From Patescibacteria group bacterium (lineage in GTDB: Bacteria; Patescibacteriota; Minisyncoccia; GCA-002772825): a stretch of DNA of 64,000 nt. Shown here piece after piece: positions 44,390 to 62,313 of the stretch; within the stretch, counting starts at the first letter, position 1; each line of letters begins with the position of its first letter. The notes under the pieces were generated by a model. It was not told where the DNA came from and did no database searches. It was given only the letters and a program-made list of their open reading frames with translations. The stretch covers positions 64,137 to 128,136 of the forward strand of contig JANLHB010000016.1 of assembly GCA_024654625.1 (NCBI GenBank). Reading direction: 5' to 3'. A program made the translations under genes and the position numbers.

Positions 44390-44682
44390 ACTACGACAAA
44401 TACCAATTTGTCCTCGACTGGGATGATCTCCCCGAGGACTTCAAAGAAGAAAAGATAACCGAGTACATCGAAAAAGGCGGGAAGCGAGCATGCGAGGAAT
44501 GTGACGGGACCGGCTCAACCTCGATACCGGCAAGCCAAGAGGCCGGCGAGATCAAGGACGAAGAAACCCAAACATGCAGTCACTGCGGCGGATCAGGCGA
44601 GGTCGATCCCGATCCAGAGGATCTTCACCAACGAGAAGAAGCCGAAGATTACATCAAAGCGCACTTCCCGATTTATTTCTAA
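44386..44682 (+). CDS. small zinc-finger protein with DnaJ-like CxxCxGxG repeats
   Basis: CEECDGTGS and a later CSHCGGSGE repeat. Confidence 0.45.
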   Translation: MNYDKYQFVLDWDDLPEDFKEEKITEYIEKGGKRACEECDGTGSTSIPASQEAGEIKDEETQTCSHCGGSGEVDPDPEDLHQREEAEDYIKAHFPIYF

Positions 44683-44717
44683 AGGTCGAATTAATAAACC
44701 AATTAAAAATTACAACC

Positions 44718-44966
44718 ATGACAAAAGCACAATTGAAAAAATCCATCGATAAGGAGATTCGAGCGATGAGAAGCAGAATCACCGACATCGTAAAAAACCG
44801 AATCGCCGATCAGATCATCGATGACCTCGGAGACGAAACCGGCGAACTGATGGGAAAGCTGACAGTGGATTTCGTAGACGATCCCAAACTTACCGATTAC
44901 GCCTACGGAAAGATATACGATGCCCTGCTCGAGGAACTCATTAAGTACCTCAAGGGATCGAAATAA
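44718..44966 (+). CDS. hypothetical phage protein
   Basis: An ORF consistent in strand and spacing with its neighbours. It is preceded by the TAAAGGTCGAA motif. Confidence 0.4.
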   Translation: MTKAQLKKSIDKEIRAMRSRITDIVKNRIADQIIDDLGDETGELMGKLTVDFVDDPKLTDYAYGKIYDALLEELIKYLKGSK

Positions 44967-45001
44967 AGGTCGAACATTGAAAATCTAAAACCAACATCAC
45001 T

Positions 45002-45481
45002 ATGACAAACGAATGGCAAGAAAAACTCAAGAAGTTTCAAGAGGCCAGAAAAGCGAAATCCGAATGGTACGAAAAGACCGGCCGGGAAATCCTCGAAGAG
45101 CACCAGATAACGGCCTGCTACAAGTGCGACTGCCGAGGATGGGGACGGGAGACGAAACACAGCCGAGCCCACGCTCATACCAAGAAGCGAATCGTCTGCC
45201 TCGATGCTGTGCCAAAAGGATACAAGTCATTCTTCACCCTCCTGCACGAAATAGGACACATCGTAGCGGAGAAAGCGGACTACTCGAGCGGAGTGCCGAG
45301 ATCGCTGGCCGAACACAACGCTACCGAGTGGGCATATAAGACGCTGAAAGAACATGGCCTGCCGATCAAACGGAAAGTCAAAGGAGAATACGACAGCTAC
45401 ATCAAAGAAAAAGTCGCGCGAGGTCTGAGGCGAGGATTAAAAGAAATCCCAAAAGAACTTCGAAAGCATTTCAAAAGTTAG
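45002..45481 (+). CDS. putative HExxH zinc-metallopeptidase-like protein
   Basis: FFTLLHEIGHIV contains HExxH. The protein is small, consistent with ImmA/IrrE- or SprT-like regulators. Confidence 0.45.
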   Translation: MTNEWQEKLKKFQEARKAKSEWYEKTGREILEEHQITACYKCDCRGWGRETKHSRAHAHTKKRIVCLDAVPKGYKSFFTLLHEIGHIVAEKADYSSGVPRSLAEHNATEWAYKTLKEHGLPIKRKVKGEYDSYIKEKVARGLRRGLKEIPKELRKHFKS

Positions 45482-45540
45482 CAACTGACTCTGCTCTCGA
45501 TGAATCGAGATCAGAGATGAGGGGCTAAAAATAAAAGCAA

Positions 45541-45737
45541 AAGGTCGACCCTCAAGAATCAAGCACATTAATAACCTTATAACTGTTCCCGACCCGCTTC
45601 TGCCGAAGCGAGAAGGGATCTCCCGCCAAGCGGGACGAGTTGGAGCACAGCTATAAGAACTAACCCAGAACCTCTTCCCGAAAGGGAGCTCGGCGAAAGC
45701 CGAAGTTGGAGCAGAGGGAAAGGAACAAAACACAATC
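45541..45737 (+). ncRNA. candidate structured ncRNA (multiple short hairpins with GAAA/GNRA-type loops, internal repeat GTTGGAGCA)
   Basis: The hairpins are GCTTCtgccGAAGC, CCCGCcaaGCGGG, CTCCC-GAAA-GGGAG and TCGGC-GAAA-GCCGA. No convincing ORF lies on the gene strand. Confidence 0.3.
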
Positions 45738-46001
45738 ATGGAAATAACACTCAAGTCCCACCGGGACTACATGAGTCGGATGCTTGGAAGCATGAGCGTC
45801 CGAGATGCCGAAAGACATTCAGGGTTTATTACAGCCCTATATGCTACCGAGGCCTTCTTAGTCGAAAGGACTCGAAAGGAATTAATTAAAAACAAGACCG
45901 ATCAGGCCCTGCTTAAAAAAGGCAAAAGCCCTGCTTTCGCAGAGCTCTCACCTATCTATGTCTTTAGCATAGCAAACCAGCCTGAAGCGGTCAATGCCTA
46001 A
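45738..46001 (+). CDS. hypothetical phage protein
   Basis: ORF with consistent strand and GC. Confidence 0.4.
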   Translation: MEITLKSHRDYMSRMLGSMSVRDAERHSGFITALYATEAFLVERTRKELIKNKTDQALLKKGKSPAFAELSPIYVFSIANQPEAVNA

Positions 46002-46806
46002 CAACATGACGGAAAAAACAACAACCAGAAAAGAGATCGTCGTGCCGCAAGTCGCCCTTCCCCAAAAGCGGGGAAGGCGACCGGCACCGCGAACCGAAGC
46101 GGTGATGCCGGCCGTGTCGGAAGCTCAAGAAAATGTCTATGAGCTTATGGATCGCAAAGACGATCAGCAGATTCTTGCCGAACTGCAAGGGAGATTCTTG
46201 GACGAGTATGTCTACGAATTCCCGCAGGACGGAAAAACGGTCACCGGCCTCTCATGGATCGGGACCAAGGAAGCGAGCCGGGAATATGGAGGCATCCAGG
46301 TCCCGCTCGAAAAATTAAAGATCATTGCCGAGGACGACAAGAGCGTCACGGTGGCGGTCGAGTCGTTTGATGTCTACACCGGCACCTCGCGGATAGGCCT
46401 CAAGCGACAGCAAAAGCACCTCCGCCTCCGAGACGGAAGGGTGCTGGAGAACCCCTTCTACTTCGAGCAAGCGGTATCCAAGGCCCAGCGAAACGCCATC
46501 AACGCGGTGATCCCATACACCTTCGTCAAAGCGTGGATTCAGCTCAAGAGAAAAGGCGCGACGCCAAAACAGATGCAGGAAGCCGAACAGCAAATCCAGG
46601 AGATCAAAGAGCAATCCGTAGATCAGAAAAAGATTCAGATTGCCGCCCTGCTCAAAAAACTCGGACACTCTCCTCAGGGTCCGGCCGAGTATCAAAAGGT
46701 CGTAAAAGACATTACTAACATAAAACTTGAGCCCCAAAACTACGATGAGGTCATCTCGCGATTGCAGATCAGCGTAGCCGAGGCCAATGGAAACGGAAAA
46801 CTATGA
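45994..46806 (+). CDS. hypothetical protein, possible single-strand annealing/recombination partner of the downstream exonuclease
   Basis: It sits immediately upstream of the Cas4-like nuclease, overlapping it, which is a typical SSAP-exonuclease pairing. No family motif was recognised. Confidence 0.4.
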   Translation: MPNNMTEKTTTRKEIVVPQVALPQKRGRRPAPRTEAVMPAVSEAQENVYELMDRKDDQQILAELQGRFLDEYVYEFPQDGKTVTGLSWIGTKEASREYGGIQVPLEKLKIIAEDDKSVTVAVESFDVYTGTSRIGLKRQQKHLRLRDGRVLENPFYFEQAVSKAQRNAINAVIPYTFVKAWIQLKRKGATPKQMQEAEQQIQEIKEQSVDQKKIQIAALLKKLGHSPQGPAEYQKVVKDITNIKLEPQNYDEVISRLQISVAEANGNGKL

Positions 46807-47711
46807 ACGGACAAACACTAACCCACGAAGCCGCCTATCCGGCGGCAGTAAAGGAAAAAGAGAAGCGGCACTTCTCGGTCTCGCAACTGCTCACTTACCA
46901 GAAGTGTCCGCTCCACTACAAATTCCGCTACATCGACGGACTCAAGATTCCGCCAAGATCGGTAATGACGCTGGGAAGCTCGGTCCATGCCGCCCTCGAG
47001 CACAATTTTCGGCAGAAGATCGAAAGCCACAAGGATCTGAAAGTAAACGATGTGCTGGATGCTTTCTCCGACAGCTTTGACTTGGCAAAACAAGAGACGC
47101 TCTGGAATAAGGATGAGAACCCATCAATGGTCAAAGACGAGGGCGTGAATCTGGTGTGCGCCTACCACACCGGCAAAGACCGCCAAGGCGAACCATTCAT
47201 CTACCGAGAGCTCAATCCCAAGACGAGGAAGTACGAAAAGAAACCCGTCAAAGCGCTGTCGCCGACCATTCAACCGCTCATGGTCGAAGAACCCTTCGAG
47301 GTGAACTTCGACAATGTGGACTACAAATTTATCGGCCGAATGGACTTGGTGGATGACAAGATGAGAATCCGAGACACCAAGACGAGCGCGAGAACTCCGA
47401 CTCAAGATCAGGTGGACACTGACCTTCAGATGACCGCCTACAGCATGGGATTCCGGGTAAAGACCGGGAAGATCGAGAAGGGACTCGTGATGGATTACAT
47501 CGTCAAAAACGGCGTGCCGAAAGTGGTCAGCGTCGCCACCAAGAGAACCGAAGAGGATATTCAGCGACTCTTGAATCTTATGGCGAGAATTGCCCATGCC
47601 ATAGATTGCGGAGTGTTCTACTGCAGTTGCAACCCGATATTCTGCAACCCGAATAATTGCGGATATTGGGATTTAGGGAACGGCAGAGGTTGCAGATACG
47701 GAATCGGGTAA
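46803..47711 (+). CDS. PD-(D/E)xK exonuclease, Cas4/RecB-like with C-terminal Cys cluster
   Basis: N-terminal FSVSQLLTYQKCP, catalytic GRMDLV.D...IRDTKTS, QMTAYSMGF (QxxxY), and four C-terminal cysteines (CGVFYCSCNPIFCNPNNC). Confidence 0.7.
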   Translation: MNGQTLTHEAAYPAAVKEKEKRHFSVSQLLTYQKCPLHYKFRYIDGLKIPPRSVMTLGSSVHAALEHNFRQKIESHKDLKVNDVLDAFSDSFDLAKQETLWNKDENPSMVKDEGVNLVCAYHTGKDRQGEPFIYRELNPKTRKYEKKPVKALSPTIQPLMVEEPFEVNFDNVDYKFIGRMDLVDDKMRIRDTKTSARTPTQDQVDTDLQMTAYSMGFRVKTGKIEKGLVMDYIVKNGVPKVVSVATKRTEEDIQRLLNLMARIAHAIDCGVFYCSCNPIFCNPNNCGYWDLGNGRGCRYGIG

Positions 47712-47787
47712 TCGGCAACTGACAGCCGGCCCTACGGATCATCGTAGTTGCGTGATCCAGAAGTAGGACCGGCTGATGAGAGGCCGG

Positions 47788-47816
47788 GAAGAAGTCCGAG
47801 TGCGGACTTCTTCTTC
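47788..47816 (+). terminator. putative terminator hairpin (11-bp perfect stem)
   Basis: GAAGAAGTCCG agtg CGGACTTCTTC followed by a weak U-tract. Confidence 0.35.
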
Positions 47817-47832
47817 GGGGGGAAGAAACTAT

Positions 47833-48084
47833 ATGACATATACAAAAACAACAACTGAATACAGACAACCGACCAGCGCCGAGCAGTACCGCTTTTTGTG
47901 CGGCATTTTGCTTCCGCAAATTCAAGCCGTTTTTGGTTGTGATCGAAAAACCGCGCATAAACGCATGAGAGACAGGCTCATCGAGTGGGGCTACATCAAA
48001 CGATCCCGATCCGAGCTCGCCTATCATCAGACCATAGAGATCACGCAAAGGTTCAAAAATTATTTAGCAAAACAAAAAACATGA
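47833..48084 (+). CDS. hypothetical phage protein
   Basis: ORF; start chosen after the hairpin. Confidence 0.35.
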   Translation: MTYTKTTTEYRQPTSAEQYRFLCGILLPQIQAVFGCDRKTAHKRMRDRLIEWGYIKRSRSELAYHQTIEITQRFKNYLAKQKT

Positions 48085-48305
48085 CTGATTTAGAAAAAGC
48101 AAAAATTTTATATGAGTGCCAATTTTGGATGGGTGGTAACGGTCACTTTTATTTGAGCCCCGAAGATGTGGCTGAAGTTTTGCGACTTATGCGAACAAAG
48201 AAAAACCCCGAAGCCCTAAAGGTCGCATTGCGGGATTTTTACGATAACCACCCGAAAGCAAAAGCGGTCGATCGGGGGTTAGAAGAAAATTATTTGGAAT
48301 ACTAA
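48081..48305 (+). CDS. hypothetical phage protein
   Basis: ATGA-coupled to the upstream ORF. Confidence 0.4.
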   Translation: MTDLEKAKILYECQFWMGGNGHFYLSPEDVAEVLRLMRTKKNPEALKVALRDFYDNHPKAKAVDRGLEENYLEY

Positions 48306-48310
48306 CTTTT

Positions 48311-49060
48311 ATGAAAAACGGATGGGTATCAATTTGGCGTAAACTGCAACATCACTGGATATGGGATGACAGGCCCTTCAGCCGGGCCCAGGCGTGGATT
48401 GACTTGATCATGCGAGCTACGCACAAGAGCGATAAAACAGTGCTGTTTTTGAATAGGAACTTCACTCTTACCCGAGGAGAGCTCGTCACCTCGTTGCGCT
48501 TTTTAGCCAAAGAATGGGGATGGTCAAAAAACAAAGTGAGCAAGTTTTTGGATGCGCTTGCGGCCGACAAAATGATTGAAAAAAGGGACACCGCGCGGGA
48601 CAGCCAATTCACTCGGATTTTGATAGCGAATTACGGGAGATTTCAACCGCAGAAAAACGAGGAGAGGGACAGCAAAAGGGACACGCGAGGGACACGAAAG
48701 GGACAGCAAAAGGACAGGAACAATAATGATAACAATGTTGACAATGGTAACAAAAAAGATAAGCGCACGAAGGAAGCGGAATACGATACTCTTTTTGAGA
48801 TTTTCTGGAAAGAGTATCCAAACCATAAATCCAGAAAAAGAGCCCTGCAATCTTGGCATAAGTTGAAGCCAACTCCTGAACTGACGCAAGTCGTTGTCAA
48901 TGCGGTGCGGAAAGCGAGAGAAAGCCCGCAGTGGAAAAAAGATAACGGTCAGTTTATACCCCATCCCTCAACCTACTTGAACCAAGAGCGATGGAACGAT
49001 GAGTTGGAATCACCAAAAACAAAGGTCGGAAAATACGATCACTTAATAACCAAAGATTAA
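48311..49060 (+). CDS. phage replication initiation/replisome-organizer-like protein (N-terminal winged-helix)
   Basis: N-terminal W.SIWRKL..HWIW...FS..QAWIDLIM.A is typical of phage replication-initiator N-domains. It lies upstream of the DnaC-like loader. Confidence 0.45.
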   Translation: MKNGWVSIWRKLQHHWIWDDRPFSRAQAWIDLIMRATHKSDKTVLFLNRNFTLTRGELVTSLRFLAKEWGWSKNKVSKFLDALAADKMIEKRDTARDSQFTRILIANYGRFQPQKNEERDSKRDTRGTRKGQQKDRNNNDNNVDNGNKKDKRTKEAEYDTLFEIFWKEYPNHKSRKRALQSWHKLKPTPELTQVVVNAVRKARESPQWKKDNGQFIPHPSTYLNQERWNDELESPKTKVGKYDHLITKD

Positions 49061-49062
49061 AC

Positions 49063-49848
49063 ATGGAAAAAATTGAAACAACCATAAAAGAAAATCAGCC
49101 GGCCCCGCCGCCGACTGCCTGCAGGCGATGCGGGAGTTTGACTGCGCCGAAGTTTATCACGCTTCTCGGCTGGCGCCAGCAGGATCATTGCGATTCTTGC
49201 AGTGTGATTATTGCCGAAGAAAGAGAGAGGCGGGAAACGGAAACCCATAAAAAGATGACCATAGAAACCTATCTTGAACGATCCGGCATCGTTCGTGGAA
49301 TTTTGGCGCGAATGACCTTTGAAACATTCGATAACTCACATAAGGGCAAAGCGTATGAAATCGTCAAAGAATACGCCGAAGGATTCGGCCGGGAGACGAC
49401 AAGCGGCCTCATGCTTTATGGAAAAGCTGGCTCGGGCAAAACACATCTCGCGGTTGCAATAACCCGGCACATCATCGAGCAAAAACAGATTCAAGTCAGG
49501 TTTGCCCGCGTTGTCGATTTGCTGGCAGAGATCAGAAAAACCTTTAACGAGAACGAGCAGTATCGCACTGAAAACGAATCGGACTTGATAAGCCGATACA
49601 CCTCCGCGCCTCTGCTTGTCATTGACGATTTGGGCGCGGAAAAGACCACTGACTGGGTCCGCCAGATTCTGTATCAAATCATTGACGAGCGATGGATAGA
49701 GCAGAAGCCGATCATTGTTACCTCGAACCTCAACCTTGAAGAACTGGAAGCGAGGTTTGAGGAAAGGATAGCTTCCCGAGTCGCCGGCATGTGCCGGCTG
49801 GTCGAGTCCCGGGATTACGATTACCGAATCAAGAAATCAACACCATGA
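49063..49848 (+). CDS. DnaC/IstB-like AAA+ helicase loader
   Basis: Walker A YGKAGSGKTHLAVAI and Walker B LLVIDDLGAEKTTDW. There is an N-terminal CxxC...CxxC zinc ribbon. Confidence 0.8.
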   Translation: MEKIETTIKENQPAPPPTACRRCGSLTAPKFITLLGWRQQDHCDSCSVIIAEERERRETETHKKMTIETYLERSGIVRGILARMTFETFDNSHKGKAYEIVKEYAEGFGRETTSGLMLYGKAGSGKTHLAVAITRHIIEQKQIQVRFARVVDLLAEIRKTFNENEQYRTENESDLISRYTSAPLLVIDDLGAEKTTDWVRQILYQIIDERWIEQKPIIVTSNLNLEELEARFEERIASRVAGMCRLVESRDYDYRIKKSTP

Positions 49849-50078
49849 CTTTAATCACAGGAACGGAAAAACAAATCGAAGAAGGCGCGCGCGATTACTG
49901 GACGATAGAAGCGATGACGAAATACGGCGGATCGTTTGTGAAAGCTCTTGCCGAAGCGGCAAGACACGCTGACAGGCAAAACCTTGTGAAGATAAAAGCG
50001 ACATGGATCGAATACTGGACGGAGTACGAAAAGACGGGACGCGAGATGGAAGAAAAACACGAGCAAGGAAAAATATAA
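49845..50078 (+). CDS. hypothetical phage protein
   Basis: ATGA overlap with the upstream gene. Confidence 0.4.
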   Translation: MTLITGTEKQIEEGARDYWTIEAMTKYGGSFVKALAEAARHADRQNLVKIKATWIEYWTEYEKTGREMEEKHEQGKI

Positions 50079-50112
50079 AAGGTCGAAGTAAAAAATTAAT
50101 TTCAACAAAATT

Positions 50113-50337
50113 ATGTCAAGAAAAATAGGAGCGTTATGGATCAAGAAATCGCAGGACGGGAGAAATTACTTGTCCGGCGTGATCCAGGACTTAAGCGGAG
50201 ACATCAACATTGCTGTCTTCAAGAACGATAAAAAAGAAGCGGACAAACAGCCCGATTATAATATCGTGTTGTCGGAAAGATCGAAGCCGGCCCCTCAGGT
50301 CGAAGGAGCCCCGGGTCCAGACGATATCCCGTTCTAA
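50113..50337 (+). CDS. 74-aa protein ending in an SSB-type C-terminal tail (…PGPDDIPF)
   Basis: The C-terminal DDIPF matches the conserved SSB-Ct protein-interaction motif. The gene lies in the replication module and is preceded by the TAAAAGGTCGAAG motif. Confidence 0.5.
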   Translation: MSRKIGALWIKKSQDGRNYLSGVIQDLSGDINIAVFKNDKKEADKQPDYNIVLSERSKPAPQVEGAPGPDDIPF

Positions 50338-50480: not shown

Positions 50481-50765
50481 ATGGAATCACAAGACAAAGC
50501 AGTATTGGAGACAATACTCAAAGCAATAGTAAGTCAGCCCGAAAAAGTATTGGTGAATCGCACGACGGATGAGATGGGCGTGTTGCTCACAGTTAAGCTC
50601 GGTGAGGGCGATGCCGGCGTTGTTATCGGTAAGCAAGGCCAGAGCATCAACGCGATCCGAAGCGTCATCAACATCGTAGGTCGAAAAAACCAAGCGAAAG
50701 TAAATGTGAAGCTCGATGTGCCAGAGGTGCGCCGAGGGACAGCGAGACCAGAATCCCATCTATGA
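50481..50765 (+). CDS. KH-domain RNA-binding protein (KhpA/UPF0109-like)
   Basis: VIGKQGQSINAIRSV is a GxxG KH motif. The size is ~90 aa. Confidence 0.6.
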   Translation: MESQDKAVLETILKAIVSQPEKVLVNRTTDEMGVLLTVKLGEGDAGVVIGKQGQSINAIRSVINIVGRKNQAKVNVKLDVPEVRRGTARPESHL

Positions 50766-51532: not shown

Positions 51533-51560
51533 GGACACTTAAGGACACTTAAGGACACTT
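51527..51560. repeat. tandem repeat, 3.4 × AAGGACACTT (10-mer)
   Basis: Perfect copies between the ParB-like stop and the small-terminase start. Confidence 0.85.
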
Positions 51561-51562
51561 TT

Positions 51563-53597: not shown

Positions 53598-54072
53598 TAT
53601 GCAGTGTAAAAAATGCCAAGAAAAATATCCGAATAAACTCCATCAGGGAATTTGCAAGTTTTGCTGGTCAAAGATCGGCAAGAAATCAAAACGCAAAGGC
53701 GCGAGAAACGAGCGAGAGGGCGGCGCAAAGTTTTATGAAAAGGAGTTTGGGATTACGGTCCGAAGGACACCGCGATCCGGCGGGTTTGGATCGTTTATGC
53801 CCGGCGACATTATGGCCAGAGGAGAAACCATCCTCAATGATTTTTATATTGAAATGAAAAACTGTGAGCAGTGGAAACTTTTGGAGTGGTACAAGAAAGC
53901 GAGAGAAGAGTCCCTTGACTTGGGACTTTCAAAAATACCGATTATTGATGTGACGCGCAATTTGGAAGAACATTTTATATTCATACGCCGAGATCATTTT
54001 GTAAAAATAATGAGAGAACTGGAAGGATATAGAAAAAGCGATTCGCAGAGGTCGACGGATCGCCAAAATTAA
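53590..54072 (+). CDS. zinc-finger hypothetical protein
   Basis: N-terminal CKKCQ...CKFC. Confidence 0.4.
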   Translation: MTNMQCKKCQEKYPNKLHQGICKFCWSKIGKKSKRKGARNEREGGAKFYEKEFGITVRRTPRSGGFGSFMPGDIMARGETILNDFYIEMKNCEQWKLLEWYKKAREESLDLGLSKIPIIDVTRNLEEHFIFIRRDHFVKIMRELEGYRKSDSQRSTDRQN

Positions 54073-54090: not shown

Positions 54091-54225
54091 ATGGACGAAG
54101 AAAAAAAATTGAACGAGGATCAAGCTTCTGGCGAGGAAGGACAGGCAGAGGACACAGGTGACAAGGCCAAAGAAGATGCCGACACCGATTCATCCGAGGC
54201 CAGCCAAGAAGGAAGCCGGGAGTAA
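54091..54225 (+). CDS. 44-aa highly acidic peptide (Asp/Glu-rich)
   Basis: MDEEKKLNEDQASGEEGQAEDTGDKAKEDADTDSSEASQEGSRE. It is below the track cutoff and has a weak RBS. Confidence 0.3.
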   Translation: MDEEKKLNEDQASGEEGQAEDTGDKAKEDADTDSSEASQEGSRE

Positions 54226-54282: not shown

Positions 54283-54495
54283 ATGCGAGAAACTATCAGC
54301 CACTGCCCATATTGCACTAAGGTTTTATTCAAAGATGCATCGTTCAAAGGCGAGGCGGATTTTGAGACGAACTGCCATCACTGCGGCAAGCCAATTATGG
54401 TTGAGGTGAAAAGAGAAATCTCCATTATAGTCAAGCCGATCATTAAGGTGGCCATAAAAAGAGGCCCGAAAGACCCATGTGGAAAACCTTGTTGA
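54283..54495 (+). CDS. zinc-ribbon hypothetical protein
   Basis: CPYC...CHHC. Confidence 0.4.
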   Translation: MRETISHCPYCTKVLFKDASFKGEADFETNCHHCGKPIMVEVKREISIIVKPIIKVAIKRGPKDPCGKPC

Positions 54496-54578
54496 TGCAC
54501 AAAGATATGCTATAATAAAAATACAACTGAATAGTCCTTGCTCTGCGGGGCAAGCGTGAATCGTATATTCCGAGTCTG

Positions 54579-54641
54579 CGGGCTCGCAAATGTTGCCAAG
54601 CGAAAGCACAACTCTGGCACCATTTGCGGGCCCGTTTTTTA
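54579..54641 (+). terminator. long stem-loop terminator (about 18-bp stem) with T6 tail
   Basis: GGGCTCGCAAATGtTGCCA ... TGGCAcCATTTGCGGGCCC followed by GTTTTTT. Confidence 0.5.
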
Positions 54642-54764
54642 TTTGTAGGCCCTTATCTCTGGCTCTCTTAAAGGTCGAAGCGCATCCATCGACCTCCACC
54701 TGAAAGGGTGTAAAAAGGAGCGTTGAGAGGGCCAGAAATAAGGGCTTAACAACCCAAAACAATT

Positions 54765-55793
54765 ATGTCGTGGACAAAATTTGAATCATTGCCGAATTAC
54801 TTCGGCGGAAAAAGAAAACTGGTGCAGGACATCTTCAAGCACATTAAGAAAAAAGATGGCGTGTTTATAGATGCATTTCTCGGCGGCGGCTCGGTGAGTT
54901 TATGGGCGAAAGCCAAAGGATACAAAGTCGTTTGCAACGACATTGCCGAGCGATCCGTTATTGTCGGCAAAGCTCTTATTGAAAACTCGCGGCATCAAAT
55001 CACCGATGAGGACCTAGCCCGCCTTTTTATAGAAACCAAACACAAAAGTTTTATTGAGCAAAACTATGTCCCAAAAGTATTCGTCAAACAAATCGCCGAA
55101 TTTTTGGACAACGCCTTCGTGATGGTTCGGGACAACTTTATTCCAGGAAGCACCAAGCAATATCTGATGTACCATCTTCTCATTAAATTTATTGGAAGCA
55201 CCCGGCAGTTCGGAAAATTCACACATACGAGAGACACCATCGACCTCTCAAACGAAAGCTATGATTGGCCGCTTCGTTCGAAATCCCACGCGCCAAAAAA
55301 CATCCGCATGATCGAGCACCCGCTGATTGGACTCTTGCATCTCAAGAATGTAATCAATCGCGGCATTTTTGATAACCATCAAGAAAACGAAGTTCACAAA
55401 GGAGATGTGTTTGATTTTTTGAAAAGAGCAAGCGGCGATGTGGTCTATTTTGACCCGCCCTATCCAGAATCAAGCGCATACGAAAATGAATACTATGTCC
55501 TTGATTGCATCTTGGCCGAAAAGAAAATCACGAAAGAAGTGAGCGTGTTTTCAAAGGCCGATGCTAAAATATTTCTCGAAAAAATGTTTGAGTGTTCACG
55601 GCATATTCCACAATGGATCATTTCGCTTGGCCAAACCAATCCCGATACTGGCATAAAACCAGATGAGCTTTTGAAGGTGGTGCGAAAATTCAGAAAAGCA
55701 GAGGTCGAAATGCTTGATCACAAATGGAGTGTGTCCAATGCCGGCGGCCGACCCCAAAGCGACAACATAGAGTACATCGTCTACACCCTATGA
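54765..55793 (+). CDS. N6-adenine DNA methyltransferase (Dam/D12 class)
   Basis: Motif I FIDAFLGGGSV and motif IV VVYFDPPY. Confidence 0.7.
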   Translation: MSWTKFESLPNYFGGKRKLVQDIFKHIKKKDGVFIDAFLGGGSVSLWAKAKGYKVVCNDIAERSVIVGKALIENSRHQITDEDLARLFIETKHKSFIEQNYVPKVFVKQIAEFLDNAFVMVRDNFIPGSTKQYLMYHLLIKFIGSTRQFGKFTHTRDTIDLSNESYDWPLRSKSHAPKNIRMIEHPLIGLLHLKNVINRGIFDNHQENEVHKGDVFDFLKRASGDVVYFDPPYPESSAYENEYYVLDCILAEKKITKEVSVFSKADAKIFLEKMFECSRHIPQWIISLGQTNPDTGIKPDELLKVVRKFRKAEVEMLDHKWSVSNAGGRPQSDNIEYIVYTL

Positions 55794-56050: not shown

Positions 56051-57981
56051 AAAAATACTACGAGGAATACGATGACGCGAAAAAACACTTCTTGTATTAC
56101 TACAAGCCCGAATTTGATCGCGCCTACAAGCAATTTGCCCAGTACACCGGCGACAGAGCCAAAGAGCTTGAACGGACAACCGAGGGAGATGTTTGGCAAT
56201 CGAACGCCTACTGGGGCCAAGTATTCGCCTACATCAAAATCTTCCTGCAAAAGACCATCGGCATGGCTCCCGATTTCAAGCTCGAGGGCAAAAACTCCGA
56301 ACCCTTAAAACAAGTCATTGACTGGTTGTGGGAGGTCGGCATGTCAGATGACTTGATCGACCACTTCCTGCAGACATTTATCTGCGGCACGAGCTTAGGC
56401 AAAGACATTTTGAAAAAAGAGGTGAGAAAAAGACGCAAAAAAGAAGTCGTCATGATCGAAGAGGAACCGCCGACGGGGCTCTTTGGAGAAATGGTCGGCA
56501 AGCTCAAATCTTTCTACAAAAAACTCACCACGAAATCCGAGGTTGCCAGCATCACTTTCCGTCCCGATTTTGAACCAGTGGATATGTATAATTGCTATCC
56601 GCATCCGAGGATGAAGAAGCTCTCGGACAAACTTCCACTTTTTCAACGCTATGTGCTGACGCTCGATGAAATGAAAGAGCAATATCCAAATGTTCCAAAA
56701 ACTTTTTGGAATCAATTCAGTGACAAATCCGGCAATGTGGTTTTGCAGGGCGGAGACATTACCGACTACGCATGGGTGAGAAAAGAAGTGCTGACCGAAG
56801 CGCGGCAAAACATTAGAGACACTAAAGCGTCAACTCCGTTCGGAGGCGGCGACACCGGCATACCGTCCGATCAGCCGCAGATGAAAGAAAAGCTATTCGA
56901 GGTGGTTGAGCGATGGGTTGACGACCACTTGGTCGTGTTTCTGCCAATGTCAGGGGTGCCAAAAGAGATCAAGGACATCGACAATCCCTATGACCATAAC
57001 GAAAAACCATACAAGAGAATCGTCTTCTTCCCGAGGCCGTTCCAGTTTTACGGATTTGGCATTGTGAAGCTCGTGGAAAAACTTCAGGACTTACTGAACT
57101 CGGTCGTAAACCAGCGCGTGGATTCGGTCACTTTGAAAATGCACAGCATGATAGCCGCCGCGCCAGTGTCCCTAACAGGACGCAGAAAAGGCATAAATAT
57201 CCGGCCACTCGGTATTTTATGGACAAACGATCCGAACTCCATACGAGAGCTGAAATTTGGAGATGTGAATCCGTCCGCCTATCTTGAGCCAGACAAGATC
57301 AAGGAGATGATGCGGGTGATTATCGGCATAGATGACTACTCGACGCTCAAAGGAACTGACCGCAAAGAAACCGCCACCGTCGCATCGTTCATGCGCGAAG
57401 CAACTCTTGAAGGAGTGAAGCTATTTCTCATCATGATGCGAAATGCCTACACCGGCCACTTTGACCATTGGATTTCGATGATTAAGCAGTTCTGGACTAG
57501 GCGAAGCGTTGTGCCGAAAAAAGCCCTTGCCATTATCGATGACTTTGCCGACACGGACTTCACTCCGCTCGAGGAGAGCTGGATCGGAGAGAACGGAGAG
57601 CATCTGCTTTTCAATGATGAATACGAACTCTCCATCGAGGCCTCGTCTACGCTTGCCACTTCAACCGAACTCAAAAAAGCGAAGGATTTGGAACTTTGGG
57701 AATTAGTCAAAGATGCCGGCGACATGATTGACGAGGAGTCCGGCCAAATTTACAGCATCAAGAAATTCAAGATTTTAATGAAAGTCATTGATGACTACGG
57801 CTGGGAAGCGGAAAACTATGTCGTGCCAAGACAGATTCCGCAAGAGGTCGTTGATAACCAAGCAATACCGCCCGCGGCTCCGCCCGCAGGGTCACCGCCG
57901 GCAGAGGTCCCGGCGCCCCGAGCCCCGTCCTTAGCTGGACGGCGAGCAGGAGGAGAATTGGCGGCGGCATTAAGACAATAA
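56029..57981 (+). CDS. putative portal protein
   Basis: A 650-aa protein at the portal position, downstream of the terminase and upstream of scaffold and capsid. It has a Pro/Ala-rich C-terminal tail. No motif-level confirmation. Confidence 0.4.
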   Translation: MASIDQLKKYYEEYDDAKKHFLYYYKPEFDRAYKQFAQYTGDRAKELERTTEGDVWQSNAYWGQVFAYIKIFLQKTIGMAPDFKLEGKNSEPLKQVIDWLWEVGMSDDLIDHFLQTFICGTSLGKDILKKEVRKRRKKEVVMIEEEPPTGLFGEMVGKLKSFYKKLTTKSEVASITFRPDFEPVDMYNCYPHPRMKKLSDKLPLFQRYVLTLDEMKEQYPNVPKTFWNQFSDKSGNVVLQGGDITDYAWVRKEVLTEARQNIRDTKASTPFGGGDTGIPSDQPQMKEKLFEVVERWVDDHLVVFLPMSGVPKEIKDIDNPYDHNEKPYKRIVFFPRPFQFYGFGIVKLVEKLQDLLNSVVNQRVDSVTLKMHSMIAAAPVSLTGRRKGINIRPLGILWTNDPNSIRELKFGDVNPSAYLEPDKIKEMMRVIIGIDDYSTLKGTDRKETATVASFMREATLEGVKLFLIMMRNAYTGHFDHWISMIKQFWTRRSVVPKKALAIIDDFADTDFTPLEESWIGENGEHLLFNDEYELSIEASSTLATSTELKKAKDLELWELVKDAGDMIDEESGQIYSIKKFKILMKVIDDYGWEAENYVVPRQIPQEVVDNQAIPPAAPPAGSPPAEVPAPRAPSLAGRRAGGELAAALRQ

Positions 57982-57985
57982 ATTT

Positions 57986-58342
57986 ATGGCTCACACTGAC
58001 GAATTAAAAAAAGTAAAAGGAACGAAAATGCCGGCGGTTGAAAAACCGTCCGAGCCGAAGCGCGAATTGCCTCGCGTGACTTTTACCGCCGATGATGTTC
58101 CAGAAATCAAGGATTGGAAAATTGGTGGCAAATATTATCTCGAACTTGAAGTTGAGCAGGTTGCGGCGGAAAAAGACCGCTACGGATACGAGGGCGAAAA
58201 AGAAAGGCCGCTCACTGCGACATTTAAGGTAATGGCGGTGAAAGCTCTGAACCACGAGTCCAAAAAAGAAAACTCCGATGGTGAGAAGAAGAAAAAAGAG
58301 ATCGAGTTCGGCAATTACAAAAATCCGAATCGCATTGGCTAA
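57986..58342 (+). CDS. hypothetical phage protein
   Basis: ORF in the structural module. Confidence 0.4.
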   Translation: MAHTDELKKVKGTKMPAVEKPSEPKRELPRVTFTADDVPEIKDWKIGGKYYLELEVEQVAAEKDRYGYEGEKERPLTATFKVMAVKALNHESKKENSDGEKKKKEIEFGNYKNPNRIG

Positions 58343-58346
58343 ATCT

Positions 58347-58601
58347 ATGAACGAACACAATTACACACTCAATAAAGAAAGCGAGCAGGATTTGGTGAAT
58401 CTGTATGAGACGAAATATTTTCGCGCCTTGCAGGCATTGGTGGACGAGGAATTGGACGGCACTAAAACCTGCATGCTCAATAAGAATTTGAGCGCGGACG
58501 ATTTGCGATTTTATCAAGGCCGCGCCGAGGGACTAGCGGTCGTTCTTATAAGAATCAAGGCCTTATACGAAGAGGCAATGAGAGAACCTAAAAATCAATA
58601 A
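58347..58601 (+). CDS. hypothetical phage protein
   Basis: ORF. Confidence 0.35.
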   Translation: MNEHNYTLNKESEQDLVNLYETKYFRALQALVDEELDGTKTCMLNKNLSADDLRFYQGRAEGLAVVLIRIKALYEEAMREPKNQ

Positions 58602-58602
58602 T

Positions 58603-58764
58603 ATGCCATACGGACTTCCCAAAAAATTGAATACTTCCGCCAACGATGCCAAGGTCGAGCGTTGCGTTGAGGAGAATATGGCGAAAGGAATGGAAAAAGA
58701 ACTCGCCATCCGTATTTGCAAAGCATCAATCATGGGCACAACTAAAAGGTCGAAGAAAAAATAG
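58603..58764 (+). CDS. 53-aa hypothetical protein
   Basis: ATGA-coupled small ORF. Confidence 0.25.
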   Translation: MPYGLPKKLNTSANDAKVERCVEENMAKGMEKELAIRICKASIMGTTKRSKKK

Positions 58765-58894
58765 GTTTTCCGCGAGAGGTTCAACTCGGCGCTTTATGAG
58801 AATCGAGTTGAGCCTCTTAGCGAGGTTCTGCGGACGCCTCCCTTCTGAGGTCAAAAGGAAGGAAGAAGCAATCCGTGTAAATTAATCAAATCCT

Positions 58895-59794
58895 ATGACG
58901 AAAGAAACCAAAGCGGACGCCATCCCGAAAGACGACAAAGAAACCTTTGACGATCTTGTCGGGAAGGACCAATCCGCAAAAGAATCTTCGGACACTCCCA
59001 AAGAGGGAGAACAATCCGATAAAAAACCAGACGCCGCGGGTGAAAAACCCGAGGAGAAATCTGGCGAAACTCCCGGCGAAGAGGGAGAAAGTCCTGAAGG
59101 CGAAACGCCCAAAAAAGGCGGGGAACCCGAAGGCGAAAAACTCTTCTGGGACAAGTTTAAGAGTGAGTCCGACGCCAAGAAATCTTATGGCGAAGCCCAG
59201 GGAAAAATTATCGAGCAGGGCAAGGAGTTGAACGAACTCAAAACCCACGCCAAAGAAAATGAAGATTTTCTGGCGACGCTCGATAAAGCTCTGCTCAAAA
59301 ATCCCGAACTTGCCGAACAGCTGAAGTCGGTCATTGCCGGCGAAGCCAAAGGCGAGGAAGAGGACGAAGAGCCAGAAGAGGGCGCTCAAGATAAGGATCT
59401 CGACGCGAAAATCGAGCGAAAGCTCGAGGAGCGTGAGAACCGGGTCAAAATCAAGCGCGAGCGGGACGCATGGATCGAAAAGCATCCAGAATTTAAAAAG
59501 CCCGAAATCGGACATAAGGTTCTGGACTTGCTTGAAGAAGAGGGTTTGCCTTTCACCGCTAAAACTTTGGATATCGCATACAACTATGTGACCAAAGAAA
59601 GCCAAGTGAAAAAGGCAAAGGATGAGACAGCCAAAGAAACCGCGAAGCGCGAAGAGGCGGCCGCTCTCGAGCGAGAAGAGGCGTCAGCCGTTGGCGGCGG
59701 ATCACCGCAAGCCAAAGGCAAAGTCCCCCAAGATGCGAATCCATTCGATGATCTTGTGGGTGATTCAGTAAATCCAAACATAGTGCGGACATAA
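58895..59794 (+). CDS. putative scaffolding protein (highly charged Lys/Glu-rich, helical)
   Basis: The composition is charged and helical. It has an FDDLVG motif at both the N- and C-termini and lies immediately upstream of the capsid gene. Confidence 0.45.
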   Translation: MTKETKADAIPKDDKETFDDLVGKDQSAKESSDTPKEGEQSDKKPDAAGEKPEEKSGETPGEEGESPEGETPKKGGEPEGEKLFWDKFKSESDAKKSYGEAQGKIIEQGKELNELKTHAKENEDFLATLDKALLKNPELAEQLKSVIAGEAKGEEEDEEPEEGAQDKDLDAKIERKLEERENRVKIKRERDAWIEKHPEFKKPEIGHKVLDLLEEEGLPFTAKTLDIAYNYVTKESQVKKAKDETAKETAKREEAAALEREEASAVGGGSPQAKGKVPQDANPFDDLVGDSVNPNIVRT

Positions 59795-59849
59795 CTCGGC
59801 GGAGATTGAGGTCTTCTTACCGGGAGAATCCGCAAACAGCTAAACGCAT

Positions 59850-61070
59850 ATGGCAGAACCAACACACATACAGGGAACGAGAGACACTCTCATTATTGAG
59901 CAATCTCGGCGCATCCCCGATGTAGATGACAGAATCTACATTCTTGAACCGAACGAATCTCCATTGACCGCTTTTCTTACGCAAGTGGGAAAGATCGGCG
60001 ACGGAGGCGGGAAGTTCAGAGGAACCGCGCTTCAAAAGAGAGGCATTCATAATCCAGAGTTTACCGAATACGAAGATCAGTACTCCGGCGTCTGGGCGCA
60101 GATTAACAACGCCGCCGGCTATACTTCCGGCGCCACCGCTCTTGTTGTTGATAATCCGGGAGCCGCAATCTTCACCAAGTACGACCTCGTGAAAGTAGTC
60201 CGAACGGGCGAAATCATGCGAGTCACTTCGGTGAACTACTCCACGAACACCTTGACGGTAACTCGTGGGGCGGGCGCGACTGCGGCCGCGGCAATTCTCG
60301 ACAACGATTGGCTTCTCGTTATCGGTCCGGCGTTCGAAGAAGGTTCGAAGTCCGGCGATTCCAACACGACTAAGCTCGTGAAGGTCACGAACTATACCCA
60401 AATCTTCAAAACGAAATTTGGCGTGACTCTTACCGCCGACGCTTCGAAACTCTATCCGGCCGAAGTCGCCAAAGACCTTAAGTACTTGAGAGCCAAATAC
60501 GGAATTGAGCACGCCAAGAAAATTGAGCGGGCTTACTGGTTTGGCGAGAAGAAAGAGGTTGTCGGTCCAGACAACAAGCCGCTTCGCTTGACCGGCGGAA
60601 TCTTGGAAGCGATCAACTCCGCGGGCAATGTCCAGGACGAAGCGTCCTCGGGCTTGACCGAATCGGAGTTCCGAAACTTCCTGCGCGATTACGCCTTCAA
60701 GTTCGGCTCGTCCGAGAAGTACTTCTTCTGCGGCAACATTGTTCTGGGTTATTTGGAGAGTTTCTCTGCGAATAACTTGAGGACAGTTCCCGGCGAGAAA
60801 ACCTACGGCGTGGAAGTGCGCAAGTGGATCTCCTCGTTCGGCGCGTTGAATATCGTTCGGCATCCAATGTTTGATAATCAGTACTCCGGCATGGGCGTGG
60901 TGCTTGACCTCGGAACGGTTAAGCATTGCCCGCTTGCCAACCGCGACACGGCATTGGAAACGAGCATTCAGGAAAACGACGCTGACGAGCAGGTGGATCA
61001 GTACAAATCCGAAGTCGGTCTTCAGAGAACGAACTTCGAGAAAAACGCGCTTCTCAAAGGAGTCGTCTAA
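59850..61070 (+). CDS. putative major capsid protein
   Basis: A 406-aa protein directly after the scaffold gene. Assignment is by position and size only. Confidence 0.45.
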   Translation: MAEPTHIQGTRDTLIIEQSRRIPDVDDRIYILEPNESPLTAFLTQVGKIGDGGGKFRGTALQKRGIHNPEFTEYEDQYSGVWAQINNAAGYTSGATALVVDNPGAAIFTKYDLVKVVRTGEIMRVTSVNYSTNTLTVTRGAGATAAAAILDNDWLLVIGPAFEEGSKSGDSNTTKLVKVTNYTQIFKTKFGVTLTADASKLYPAEVAKDLKYLRAKYGIEHAKKIERAYWFGEKKEVVGPDNKPLRLTGGILEAINSAGNVQDEASSGLTESEFRNFLRDYAFKFGSSEKYFFCGNIVLGYLESFSANNLRTVPGEKTYGVEVRKWISSFGALNIVRHPMFDNQYSGMGVVLDLGTVKHCPLANRDTALETSIQENDADEQVDQYKSEVGLQRTNFEKNALLKGVV

Positions 61071-61210
61071 ACGGAAGCGTGATCCCGGCTTTCTTACTCA
61101 ACGGGATATCAGGCGTTGCCCTGACCATCTGATGCTGATTTGTTTCGGCGTCAGTGGTTAGGGTGACGCGTTGAGAGGTCGCAACGAACGATCACTTAAA
61201 AGTCAAAGCC

Positions 61211-61627
61211 ATGCCAACACCGAAATACAGCGAAAAAGAGCTTTTGAATCTCATCCTTGATGAGGTCAATCAAGCGATTAAACAGCGGAGAGTAAATCCG
61301 ATTCTTACTTCGGAATTGCTCGCATCGGGCGCGCGGACAGTGTCGGGCGAAGGATCTTCCATTGATCTCGGAAATACCAGAGAACTTATTGTGACTCTGG
61401 ATGTATCCGCGGCCAGCGGAACATCGCCGACGCTCGATGTAAAACTTCAGCATTCTCCCGACGGATCAATGTGGTCTGACTTGGGCACCGCGTTTGCCCA
61501 AAAAACAGGCGTAAGTCGAGAGGTCAAGGTGTTCACCCAATATCACCGCTATGTGAAAGCGGTTTACACCATCGCGGGCACATCGCCGAGCTTTACCTTT
61601 TCGGTCGAGGCGACGGCGAAAGAATAA
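61211..61627 (+). CDS. hypothetical structural protein
   Basis: ORF. Confidence 0.4.
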   Translation: MPTPKYSEKELLNLILDEVNQAIKQRRVNPILTSELLASGARTVSGEGSSIDLGNTRELIVTLDVSAASGTSPTLDVKLQHSPDGSMWSDLGTAFAQKTGVSREVKVFTQYHRYVKAVYTIAGTSPSFTFSVEATAKE

Positions 61628-61646
61628 ATTAACCACAAAAATTCCC

Positions 61647-62009
61647 ATGACATTATTTAATTCACGCATCAAAACTTTGCGAATCGTCTTGACGCCATCG
61701 CGGCCGATTTACGAGCAGGGCGTCCGGCTCGGCGATACGCAGGGAAAGTATGTCCAATTTGAGAACGGGCGTTTTCAAACGGACGACAATGAAACTATCG
61801 AGAAATTGCAAAAACTCCCCAACTTCGGAGTTGATTTCTGGAAAGTTTCCGATGAGCCGGCAAAGCCGCAAGAACCGCAGGCAAACCAAGAAAGCGATCT
61901 TGGATCGCTGACTAAGCAGGAGCTTATCGAGCTTGCGAAGTCAAAAAACATAGAGGTCGATGAAGGCCTAACCAAGGTAGAAATTATCGCGCGTCTCAAG
62001 ACGCAATAA
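61647..62009 (+). CDS. hypothetical protein with Rho-N/SAP-like C-terminal helix-hairpin (LTKQELIELAKSKNIEV)
   Basis: Motif-level evidence only. Confidence 0.35.
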   Translation: MTLFNSRIKTLRIVLTPSRPIYEQGVRLGDTQGKYVQFENGRFQTDDNETIEKLQKLPNFGVDFWKVSDEPAKPQEPQANQESDLGSLTKQELIELAKSKNIEVDEGLTKVEIIARLKTQ

Positions 62010-62014
62010 ATCCT

Positions 62015-62284
62015 ATGGATTACAAAATCGTAAAAATCGAAAAAACAAACGACGGCATTGAAGTAGAGGTGCAGTTCCTCGAGGACGAGGAAGTCGTTGA
62101 TTCCAGAAAATACCTCTACAACGCATCGCTCGAGCAGGATGAGTTGGAATCAGCAGTGAGAAAAGACGCGGAAGGAGTAATCGCCGATTATGAACTCCGC
62201 GCTGAAAATGCAGAAAGAGATCGGCGAGAAAAAGAGGTCGACACGAAAGTCGAGGGATTAAAAGAATCCTTTGACTTGGAATAG
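62015..62284 (+). CDS. hypothetical phage protein
   Basis: ORF. Confidence 0.35.
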   Translation: MDYKIVKIEKTNDGIEVEVQFLEDEEVVDSRKYLYNASLEQDELESAVRKDAEGVIADYELRAENAERDRREKEVDTKVEGLKESFDLE

Positions 62285-62313
62285 AGGTCAAATAAATTAA
62301 TTAAATCAATACC

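Follow-up and report, generated by a model that had tools for sequence, protein, structure and literature searches.

The question raised by the DNA considered here, a stretch of 64,000 nucleotides (nt) from a Patescibacteria group bacterium (contig JANLHB010000016.1, positions 64,137 to 128,136; in the following the window), is what a short word, AAAGGTCGA, does ahead of so many genes of the phage that begins in its last third. An earlier note on this DNA had offered three answers, namely a phage promoter or -10-like element, a binding site for a phage regulator, and translational coupling. The word is real, strand-specific and constrained on the nucleotide level. Our answer as to its function is tentative: we infer that it acts on the RNA level and has a role in translation initiation, and the reading we prefer, with a probability of roughly 40%, is that of an element which is transcribed, marks the 5′ edge of a leader without Shine-Dalgarno sequence and acts on the mRNA.

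In the window AAAGGTCGA is found eight times on the plus strand (41299, 44341, 44681, 44965, 45540, 50078, 54670 and 58745) and not at all on the minus strand. The 10-mer AAAGGTCGAA occurs six times in the phage part, against 0.21 copies expected from a third-order Markov model, and is the sole 10-mer there with at least four copies and strong enrichment. This agrees with the earlier note, which had called the motif non-random, linked to gene boundaries and tied to gene expression. Nine copies of AGGTCGAA (2.28 expected), all on the plus strand between 44343 and 58754, represent a number reached in none of 100 shuffles. At gene boundaries AGGTCGAA is located at 44683, 44967, 50080, 54672 and 58747; three further copies within coding sequence (50297, 50678 and 55702) lack the AA prefix, score 11.5 bits at most and are probably due to chance. 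AAGGTCGA is found at 45541, where the next base is C, and on the host side at 41300, where it is T. When scored with a weight matrix, the seven phage sites reach 17-21 bits and the host site 14.2 bits, with a background of at most 13.5 bits. Every copy listed in the earlier note is present within 0-3 nt, and so is a variant GAGGTCAA at 62284, while the strong copy at 44341-44350 was absent from that list. The copies and variants are the following:

44341 to 44350, plus strand: copy 1 (AAAGGTCGAA, 20.3 bits), within the final codons of the helix-turn-helix (HTH) gene 44141-44389; ATG at 44386, 42 nt on from the first G of GGTCGA
44681 to 44690, plus strand: copy 2, at the stop codon TAA 44680-44682; it opens the 35-nt spacer 44683-44717 before the ATG at 44718
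44965 to 44974, plus strand: copy 3, at the stop codon TAA 44964-44966; spacer 44967-45001, ATG at 45002 (ImmA/IrrE-like protease gene)
45540 to 45549, plus strand: copy 4 (AAAGGTCGAC), heading a structured non-coding leader of 195 nt; ATG at 45738
50078 to 50087, plus strand: copy 5 (20.4 bits), overlapping the stop codon TAA 50076-50078; spacer 50079-50112, ATG at 50113 (DUF736-like gene)
54670 to 54679, plus strand: copy 6, 30 nt past an intrinsic terminator; the DNA methyltransferase gene starts 92 nt downstream (ATG at 54765)
58745 to 58754, plus strand: copy 7 (20.8 bits), within the final codons of the small gene 58603-58764; two hairpins follow
41299 to 41308, plus strand: host-side copy (AAAGGTCGAT, 14.2 bits), 38 nt before the ATG at 41340 (32-residue lysine-rich peptide)
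49021 to 49029, plus strand: variant AAAGGTCGG, within the final codons of the DnaD-like gene; the gene for the DnaC-like loader starts 39 nt downstream (ATG at 49063)
54048 to 54055, plus strand: variant GAGGTCGA, conserved in the related contigs L201 and L202; a small acidic open reading frame (ORF) starts 41 nt downstream (ATG at 54091)
58847 to 58854, plus strand: variant GAGGTCAA, downstream of copy 7 and 46 nt before the ATG at 58895
62284 to 62291, plus strand: variant GAGGTCAA, overlapping a stop codon TAG; 29-nt spacer 62285-62313, ATG at 62314
61175 to 61182, plus strand: weak variant GAGGTCGC, with an ATG 34 nt downstream (61211); the membership of this variant is uncertain because GAGGTC is frequent in coding sequence

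In an alignment of 42 sites, information is limited to AAAGGTCGA and a preferred A behind it (A-3 through A+6). The AAA prefix is kept in 39 of the 42. The 5′ edge is sharp, the bases upstream being unconserved, and the tract downstream is G-poor. In the related loci 64 copies are oriented with the genes and four against them.

The position of the motif is tied to the start codon. This was measured in 25 motif-carrying loci as the distance to the next ORF of at least 45 codons, with random positions from the same loci for comparison. None of 64 AAGGTCGA copies lies 0-20 nt and 26 (41%) lie 21-45 nt before the ORF, versus 9% and 11% of the random positions; further copies precede ORFs of fewer than 45 codons at a like distance. 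Within the window, four spacers of 29-35 nt (44683-44717, 44967-45001, 50079-50112 and 62285-62313) are each opened by the motif or a variant right after the stop codon, and the copy at 44341 and the variants at 49021 and 54048 lie within the final codons of the preceding gene, at 39-42 nt from the ATG. The distance of 31-37 nt given earlier is right for four copies and too narrow for 44341 (42 nt), 49021 (39 nt), 54048 (41 nt) and the host copy (38 nt). It also fails at 45540, 54670 and 58745 (195, 92 and 147 nt), which stand ahead of structured leaders. Likewise, an overlap with the previous stop codon, which had been called usual, is seen at four sites only (44680, 44964, 50076 and 62282).

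No Shine-Dalgarno sequence precedes the phage genes of the window, the leaders of which are A-rich and G-poor. Shine-Dalgarno-like 4-mers are present at 11% of the starts in motif loci and at 4% in the host, versus 34% in control phages. The lack of such sequences in phage and host genes alike fits the published finding that about half of the Parcubacteria have no CCTCCT, the anti-Shine-Dalgarno sequence, in their 16S rRNA (PMC9297842). That the motif itself is a Shine-Dalgarno site was rejected on account of its spacing, with none of the 64 copies within 20 nt of a start. An altered anti-Shine-Dalgarno was searched for by combining the 16S 3′ end with TCGACCTT in JGI metagenome contigs; the fetched loci contain no 16S gene. 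None of the five matches was supportive: three are ordinary 16S genes (CCTCC, with a chance match in the spacer) and two are not rRNA.

The window begins with Patescibacteria chromosome; at about 44003 this gives way to a temperate phage which is integrated in the 3′ end of secA. Up to about 44000 the G+C content is about 35% and the genes encode, among others, a glycosyltransferase, a MurB-like protein and SecA, which is 60-64% identical to proteins from Patescibacteria genome bins. From about 44100 to the window end the G+C content is about 47%, every gene is on the plus strand and this strand is A-rich. Candidatus Azambacteria records include homologues of the first phage protein, and a Hainich groundwater contig carries the capsid protein unchanged. 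The prophage is genuine and a mis-assembly is ruled out, because six other contigs (L142, L152, L158, L201, L204 and L205) with different host flanks have the same phage genes right after secA. Identity among these lysogens rises from about 63% to 84-94% inside the final secA codons (about 44003 in the window). As lysogens with unlike flanks share this identity from there on, the phage brings its own replacement secA end and terminator (window 43950-44140). The same phage genes in L202 adjoin genes for Cpn60 and an AI-2E transporter, which suggests a second insertion site or a different arrangement. No close cultured relative of the phage was found, the capsid identity being 29% at most; in IMG/VR the DnaC-like protein and an alignment of the ImmA family gave no new relatives and the exonuclease only relatives of 28-29%. 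The phage continues past the window end and the phage loci compared are partial genomes. According to Pfam and PHROG scans the order of the phage genes is:

Start, plus strand: HTH protein, zinc-finger protein, ImmA/IrrE-like HEIGH protease
Next, plus strand: PD-(D/E)XK exonuclease, DnaD-like and DnaC-like helicase loaders
Then, plus strand: DUF736-like protein, KH-domain protein, ParB-like protein
Last, plus strand: terminase, N6-adenine methyltransferase, SU10-type portal, major capsid protein

Comparing the lysogens reveals on which level the motif is conserved. It is unchanged at matching sites in six of them. Copy 2 is identical in the window, L142, L152, L158, L201 and L205, with substitutions confined to the 3′ half of the spacer. 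At site 1 a block of 32 nt, AAAGGTCGAAC...TTATCCACAA (AAGGTCGA-N14-TTATCCACAA), is near-invariant across six lysogens, while the HTH reading frame differs (K-V-E-H in the window, K-G-R-T in L142). At site 3 of L205 about half of the spacer positions after the motif have diverged, with the motif intact and the length still 35 nt. Because the motif is kept despite the shifted frame at site 1 and the diverged spacer at site 3, it is constrained on the nucleotide level. L142 and L158 have an additional small ORF at site 3, and the motif is absent there. Copy 4 is kept in L142, L158, L201 and L205, and copy 5 in L201 and L202. Upstream of the DnaC-like gene the site reads AAAGGTCGG in the window, AAAGGTCGA in L205 (44 nt to the ATG) and AAGGTCGAA in the distantly related L140 (39 nt).

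Through homologues of the ImmA-like protein, phage contigs of about 40 kb were reached. The earlier note had suggested a search in related phage contigs; the motif does recur outside this phage, in unrelated ones too (L140, L141 and about 20 cassette loci described below). In L140 (59% identity) AAGGTCGA lies 39, 41, 40 and 41 nt before four starts, three times within the upstream gene, and in L141 (56% identity) it precedes the endolysin, holin-like and ImmA-like genes and one more. L143-L145, which also have the ImmA-like homologue, lack the motif. Both L140 and L141 possess excellent sigma-70 promoters (e.g. TTGACA-17-TATCAT and TTGACA-17-TATAAT), each located after a perfect TTATCCACA box, a DnaA-box match. 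The promoter scan puts the best-scoring promoters at these boxes, and at several of them the motif is found just downstream. In order to see how specific this association is, viral contigs were scanned with three patterns, one of them a shuffled control:

GTTATCCACA-N38-68-AAAGGTCGA: 26 matches, about 20 with the cassette layout
GTTATCCACA-N38-68-AAAGTGCGA (shuffled control): 14 matches, about 9 of them distinct, none with the cassette layout
GTTATCCACA-N8-37-AAAGGTCGA: 3 matches, one with the cassette layout and the motif again past the -10

From these scans it follows that the motif is specifically associated with these promoters. The cassettes share one order. It begins with TTATCCACA; 5-10 nt further on comes a TTGACA-like -35, and about 17 nt after this a TATAAT-like -10. 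The motif mostly follows the -10 by 2-10 nt, and after it come an A-rich leader and the ATG. The motif occupies about +1 to +10 of the predicted transcript, within about 25 nt past the -10, and is never inside the promoter. Since it lies downstream of the -10, at or just past the predicted transcription start, those copies should be transcribed. The phages with cassettes range from 29 to 62% in G+C content. As to the boxes themselves, TTATCCACA is found 5-10 nt 5′ of the -35 (about -45 to -54) in many phage contigs with few Shine-Dalgarno sequences, and in every case it has the orientation of the promoter (L140: 8417, 8427, 15652 and 19804; L141: 7581, 9216, 10182, 13137, 13212, 16406 and 19643; also in L161-L184). 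This position suggests that DnaA or another reader of TTATCCACA may serve as an upstream promoter factor in these phages. In the window one such box (41215-41223) lies upstream of the host-side copy in the same layout as in the phage cassettes, and another (44363-44371) comes after copy 1.

These findings speak against the motif being a promoter or -10-like element. No sigma-70 promoter match was found at any window copy and only one block is conserved; in the relatives the motif is downstream of the -10 (mostly 2-10, at most about 23 nt) and never in the interval from box to -10. One version of this idea which we consider very unlikely is a single-block promoter for a modified or alternative holoenzyme, comparable to the late promoter TATAAATA of T4 or to the MotA box at -30 of T4 middle promoters, through which each gene preceded by such a gap would obtain its own short-leader transcript. 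It would explain how 20 kb are transcribed from a coding strand that is nearly free of sigma-70 matches in the window, and why copy 6 comes after a terminator. The motif is moreover 35-45 nt from the ATG, like the -35 of short-leader promoters in L140 and L141, and at about 10 of 17 sites a TAnnAA-like hexamer, read by eye, follows 11-13 nt past the motif. However, these hexamers have no conserved final T and no second element is in register, and in the roughly 20 cassettes, where the motif mostly follows a good -10 by 2-10 nt, two promoters would have to be superimposed. Early, replication, lysis and structural genes are all preceded by the motif alike, and no gene for a sigma factor or a gp55-, gp33- or MotA-like protein is recognisable in Pfam and PHROG scans of 20 window proteins. 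Two related candidates were rejected. As the -35 of leaderless messages the motif has inconsistent spacings to a candidate -10 (9-19 nt) and the final T is missing, and as one half of a bipartite motif with TTAAT / AAATTAAT it has a second word which is enriched in leaders yet not an in-register partner, because it lies 1-19 nt from the motif.

A single word shared by phages that have almost no proteins in common points to a reader encoded by the host, for example the translation machinery. In the reading we prefer, AAAGGTCGA(A) would act in cis and mark the 5′ edge of a compact expression unit consisting of the motif, about 15-35 nt of G-poor, A-rich leader without Shine-Dalgarno sequence, and the ATG. 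Such a unit would be employed by temperate phages of Patescibacteria, many host lineages of which have no anti-Shine-Dalgarno. It would be set either at a sigma-70 transcription start or directly after, or in the last codons of, an upstream gene, packed as tightly as possible against the preceding transcription start or stop codon. The motif may then be an upstream docking or standby signal that guides the 30S subunit, or a protein recruiting it, to starts lacking a Shine-Dalgarno sequence. Translational coupling as proposed in the earlier note comes close to this, in that a leader element linked to the start is involved; but the motif is also present in 5′ leaders without an upstream reading frame, so that coupling or re-initiation alone is insufficient.

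RNA structure may fit one of the distant window copies, copy 4, to this unit. The predicted fold behind copy 4 contains a helix CCCUC/GAGGG closing an insert, which would bring the motif to about 26 effective nt from the ATG (z -2.2). The region in question (45560-45737, about 180 nt, between the ImmA-like gene and gene 45738) is structured and non-coding, has GNRA-like capped hairpins (GCCGAAGC, CCCGAAAGGG and GGCGAAAGCC), is kept in L142, L158, L201 and L205 and has no Rfam match. Copy 6 pairs with TCGACCT (54690-54696) in a long hairpin at about 54648-54746 (fold z -6.9) with the outer stem GGCCCUUAUCUCUGGCUCUC / GAGAGGGCCAGAAAUAAGGGC, which also holds a second small hairpin and ends 18 nt before the methyltransferase ATG. 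In Rfam the window has no match at the gathering threshold, and near copies 4 and 6 there are chance-level matches only.

Several observations weigh against the leader reading. Only about one third of the phage genes in the window have the motif, a spacing of 21-45 nt is loose for a direct contact with the ribosome, and no 16S 3′ tail complementary to the motif was found among the metagenome contigs. Copy 6 is buried in a very stable hairpin; three copies are 92-195 nt from the ATG, and their structural shortening rests on one modest fold. The positional arguments are also compatible with a DNA site required downstream of the -10. Finally, a general ribosome signal should serve the host as well, whereas about 88 kb of host DNA from lysogens hold only one strong copy (41299), and another 166 kb of Patescibacteria DNA show no enrichment.

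A narrower version, which we regard as doubtful, lets AAAGGUCGAA replace the Shine-Dalgarno sequence outright: at -21 to -45 it would form a distal docking site that a 30S subunit without anti-Shine-Dalgarno reads directly. The reader would be a segment of rRNA other than the 3′ tail, or a ribosomal protein, and the phages would carry the consensus form in order to capture host ribosomes. If this is true, AAAGGUCGAA together with the TTATCCACA box at about -50 would represent a previously undescribed grammar of phage expression.

The regulator site proposed in the earlier note survives as the main rival. It is a live possibility, if a rather unlikely one in our estimate: an asymmetric DNA operator or roadblock similar to the stoperators of the mycobacteriophages L5 and Bxb1. 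A repressor of the phage (e.g. the HTH protein encoded at 44141-44389), or of a host in which it has a small regulon, would bind the 10-bp site and block initiation at about +1 to +10 and elongation between the cistrons, and the single-strand prophage would be silenced. The phage is indeed temperate, sits in secA and has all genes on one strand, and the word is asymmetric, present in multiple copies and co-oriented with transcription. Four copies are found within 1.2 kb at the prophage end near the HTH and ImmA/IrrE-like protease genes, and two copies in L140 flank a small HTH_17 gene. In the cassettes the motif and the predicted transcription start overlap, which is where operators classically lie, and one copy per about 88 kb of host DNA would suit a small host regulon. 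On the other hand, pairs of repressor and operator normally diverge fast, while here one word is common to phages which share almost no proteins and, as far as the partial genomes go, no homologous HTH gene, which argues against a phage-specific repressor. The search for homologues of the window HTH protein yielded close relatives only, with identities of at least 68%. Furthermore, the motif is never within -35, spacer or -10, and nothing about an operator would keep it out of the 20 nt preceding the ATG or hold it 21-45 nt away inside an upstream gene.

Two further alternatives also place the motif in transcribed sequence. It could be a site of RNA processing or stability, where an endoribonuclease cuts the polycistronic mRNA or a bound factor shields the 5′ end, so that internal cistrons gain the same leader as primary transcripts starting at the motif. 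The location of the motif both at predicted primary 5′ ends in the cassettes and at the heads of intercistronic leaders, the like leader lengths in both contexts and the sharp 5′ boundary with uninformative sequence upstream would all fit. We nevertheless consider this unlikely, as a cut at about +1 to +7 of a primary transcript lacks an obvious purpose and no candidate nuclease is common to the loci; no bacterial endoribonuclease is known to recognise a linear word of 10 nt. Highly improbable in our view is an ops-like element, the non-template strand of which would be read in a paused complex by a factor of the NusG/RfaH type that suppresses termination and couples the ribosome to messages without Shine-Dalgarno sequence. 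The strand specificity, the location in leaders just past promoters, the rarity in the host chromosome and the lack of Shine-Dalgarno sequences at the genes, with RfaH operons as an analogy, speak for it. Against it, there are several copies per operon (three within 700 bp), a spacing tied to the ATG is no property of ops, and the motif has no similarity to GGCGGTAGCGTG. No NusG paralogue was noticed in the loci examined, in a survey that was not exhaustive and not aimed at NusG.

Who reads the motif was also approached from the side of the proteins. An all-against-all BLAST of the ORFs of 25 loci found no shared reader protein: the phages sharing the motif have hardly any proteins in common, and no shared protein has a recognisable role in binding DNA or RNA. 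One family alone, the ImmA-like protease, is common to the window, L140 and L141, and it also occurs in the motif-free L143-L145. This ImmA/IrrE-like family (window 45002-45481; P0001-P0032; L140, L141 and L143-L145) comprises proteins of 137-175 residues with invariant CxxCxC, HxH and HEIGH; several phage contigs of about 40 kb, unrelated in other respects, have no other gene in common. At 50481-50765 the phage encodes a KhpA-like RNA-binding protein with a KH domain, which has a homologue in the unrelated, motif-carrying L163 (1678-1992). It is a candidate RNA-binding reader; it is absent from most loci examined. Sequence misfit led us to reject a LexA (Cheo) box CGAAC-N4-GTTCG, the CtsR tandem heptad and a variant of the DnaA box. 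For a CtsR operator, i.e. a tandem (A/G)GTCAAA 3 nt apart, no second heptad is present in any of the 42 aligned sites.

A general host signal was rejected as well, since a weight-matrix scan of 187 kb of Patescibacteria DNA, about 20 kb of it lysogen host DNA, gave two strong matches which are apparently in coding sequence. The gene behind the host-side copy (41340-41438) stands alone with its own terminator between murB and secA and encodes a peptide of 32 residues rich in lysine and alanine (MATKRKAAKKKTVKKAAKKK...); other lysogens have different small genes in this position. A possible second host copy with the weak score of 10.7 bits is the one-mismatch variant TAAAGGACGAAAT at 36360-36372 on the minus strand, which lies in a divergent intergenic region 48 nt 5′ of the ATG of host gene 35457-36320. 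Loose RAGGTC sequences before the host genes 18328 and 28150 cannot be distinguished from chance. The host island 17100-21800 differs from the remaining host genes by a G+C content of 0.42 and clear Shine-Dalgarno sequences (GGAGG). Its genes 18328, 19335 and 20573 are preceded, after terminators, by near-identical promoter-like sequences TTGCAA-N16-TATSGT-TTAA, and the island looks like horizontally acquired, duplicated cassettes.

Of the other features in the phage part, the coding strand of which has otherwise almost no sigma-70 promoter matches in the window, one promoter deserves mention:

54489 to 54516, plus strand: sigma-70-type promoter TTGTTG-N16-TATAAT with TG before the -10, the sole good one on the plus strand of the phage part

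It is predicted to give an RNA of about 120 nt which ends at a strong terminator at about 54578-54641 (15-bp stem and U-run, z -3.3) just 5′ of copy 6. This RNA could be a phage small RNA or a leader similar to lambda 6S/tR′ which requires antitermination; it adjoins the methyltransferase, portal and capsid genes on their 5′ side and has no Rfam match. Before the probable small terminase gene, a gap of 30 nt (51533-51562) consists of three tandem GGACACTTAA units, which are unlike the motif.

Patescibacteria (Candidate Phyla Radiation) account for a large share of bacterial diversity, and the motif may show how genes are expressed in phages of these ultra-small bacteria where a classical ribosome-binding site is missing. 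It would be a sharply defined, widely shared and mutable handle on how start codons are found without an anti-Shine-Dalgarno. TTATCCACA, -35, -10 and motif together form a cassette of four parts, which can be recognised in 20 or more phage contigs that are not otherwise related. It might be used to annotate transcription units and true starts, to link phages with hosts, to build expression constructs for cultivable members and to test whether a distal mRNA signal can substitute for the Shine-Dalgarno interaction. Should the motif be an operator, it would point to a regulator common to many phages of the group.

Recurrent phage words linked to starts or intergenic regions are already known, namely SAS, stoperators and the late and middle promoters of T4. 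In the literature library searched we found no description of AAAGGTCGA in this sense, and for Patescibacteria promoters and leaders only of canonical -35/-10 elements. The SAS of Cluster K mycobacteriophages (e.g. TM4) is an asymmetric word of about 13 bp which lies 3-8 bp from the start, contains a Shine-Dalgarno sequence and has a proposed role in translation. Like SAS, the motif is a conserved asymmetric word before a subset of genes, co-oriented with them, at a distance linked to the start and common to a group of phages. In contrast to SAS it is 21-45 nt away and never within 20 nt, has no Shine-Dalgarno sequence within or around it, occurs in phages with almost no shared genes and is found at the transcription start of canonical promoters. 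The stoperators of Cluster A phages (L5 gp71, Bxb1 gp69) have no fixed distance to the start, and their cognate repressor defines the immunity group. Their traits of asymmetry, multiple copies and single orientation are all found in the motif (8 versus 0 copies per strand in the window, 64 versus 4 in the related loci), and here, too, sites of 10-13 bp in a temperate phage lie in short gaps, often touching stop codons, with one copy at an early promoter. However, the motif is excluded from the promoter core and from the last 20 nt ahead of the ATG, and the word crosses phages with few shared proteins. The trait typical of ops/RfaH systems, a strand-specific leader element downstream of a promoter, is found as well.

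Translational enhancers and standby sites, such as the ‘epsilon’ of T7 gene 10 and S1-binding leaders, are A/U-rich or complementary to a known segment of 16S rRNA. They resemble the proposed role of the motif as upstream mRNA elements which are independent of, or additive to, a Shine-Dalgarno sequence and are followed by an unstructured leader. They differ in that the motif is a sharp 10-mer repeated across genomes, with no demonstrated complementarity to rRNA. The T4 late promoter is read by gp55 and the MotA box of middle promoters by MotA/AsiA; as in T4, a single block of 8-9 bp precedes many genes, often in the end of the upstream gene, but here it follows complete sigma-70 promoters and no gene for such a factor is seen. 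GGTCGAA is one base off the ‘0A box’ of Spo0A (TGTCGAA), and the variant GGTCAAA equals the CtsR heptad. Both kinds of boxes are located near promoters, phi29 carries 0A boxes and CtsR requires a tandem heptad; the motif differs from them by the lack of a tandem heptad and by its conserved AAA prefix, and Spo0A is not known in Patescibacteria. In comparison to all these systems, what is new in the motif is its distance to the start, the absence of a Shine-Dalgarno sequence, the host group, the position at canonical transcription starts and the spread over unrelated phages, and its main interest lies in the access it offers to gene expression in Patescibacteria without an anti-Shine-Dalgarno.

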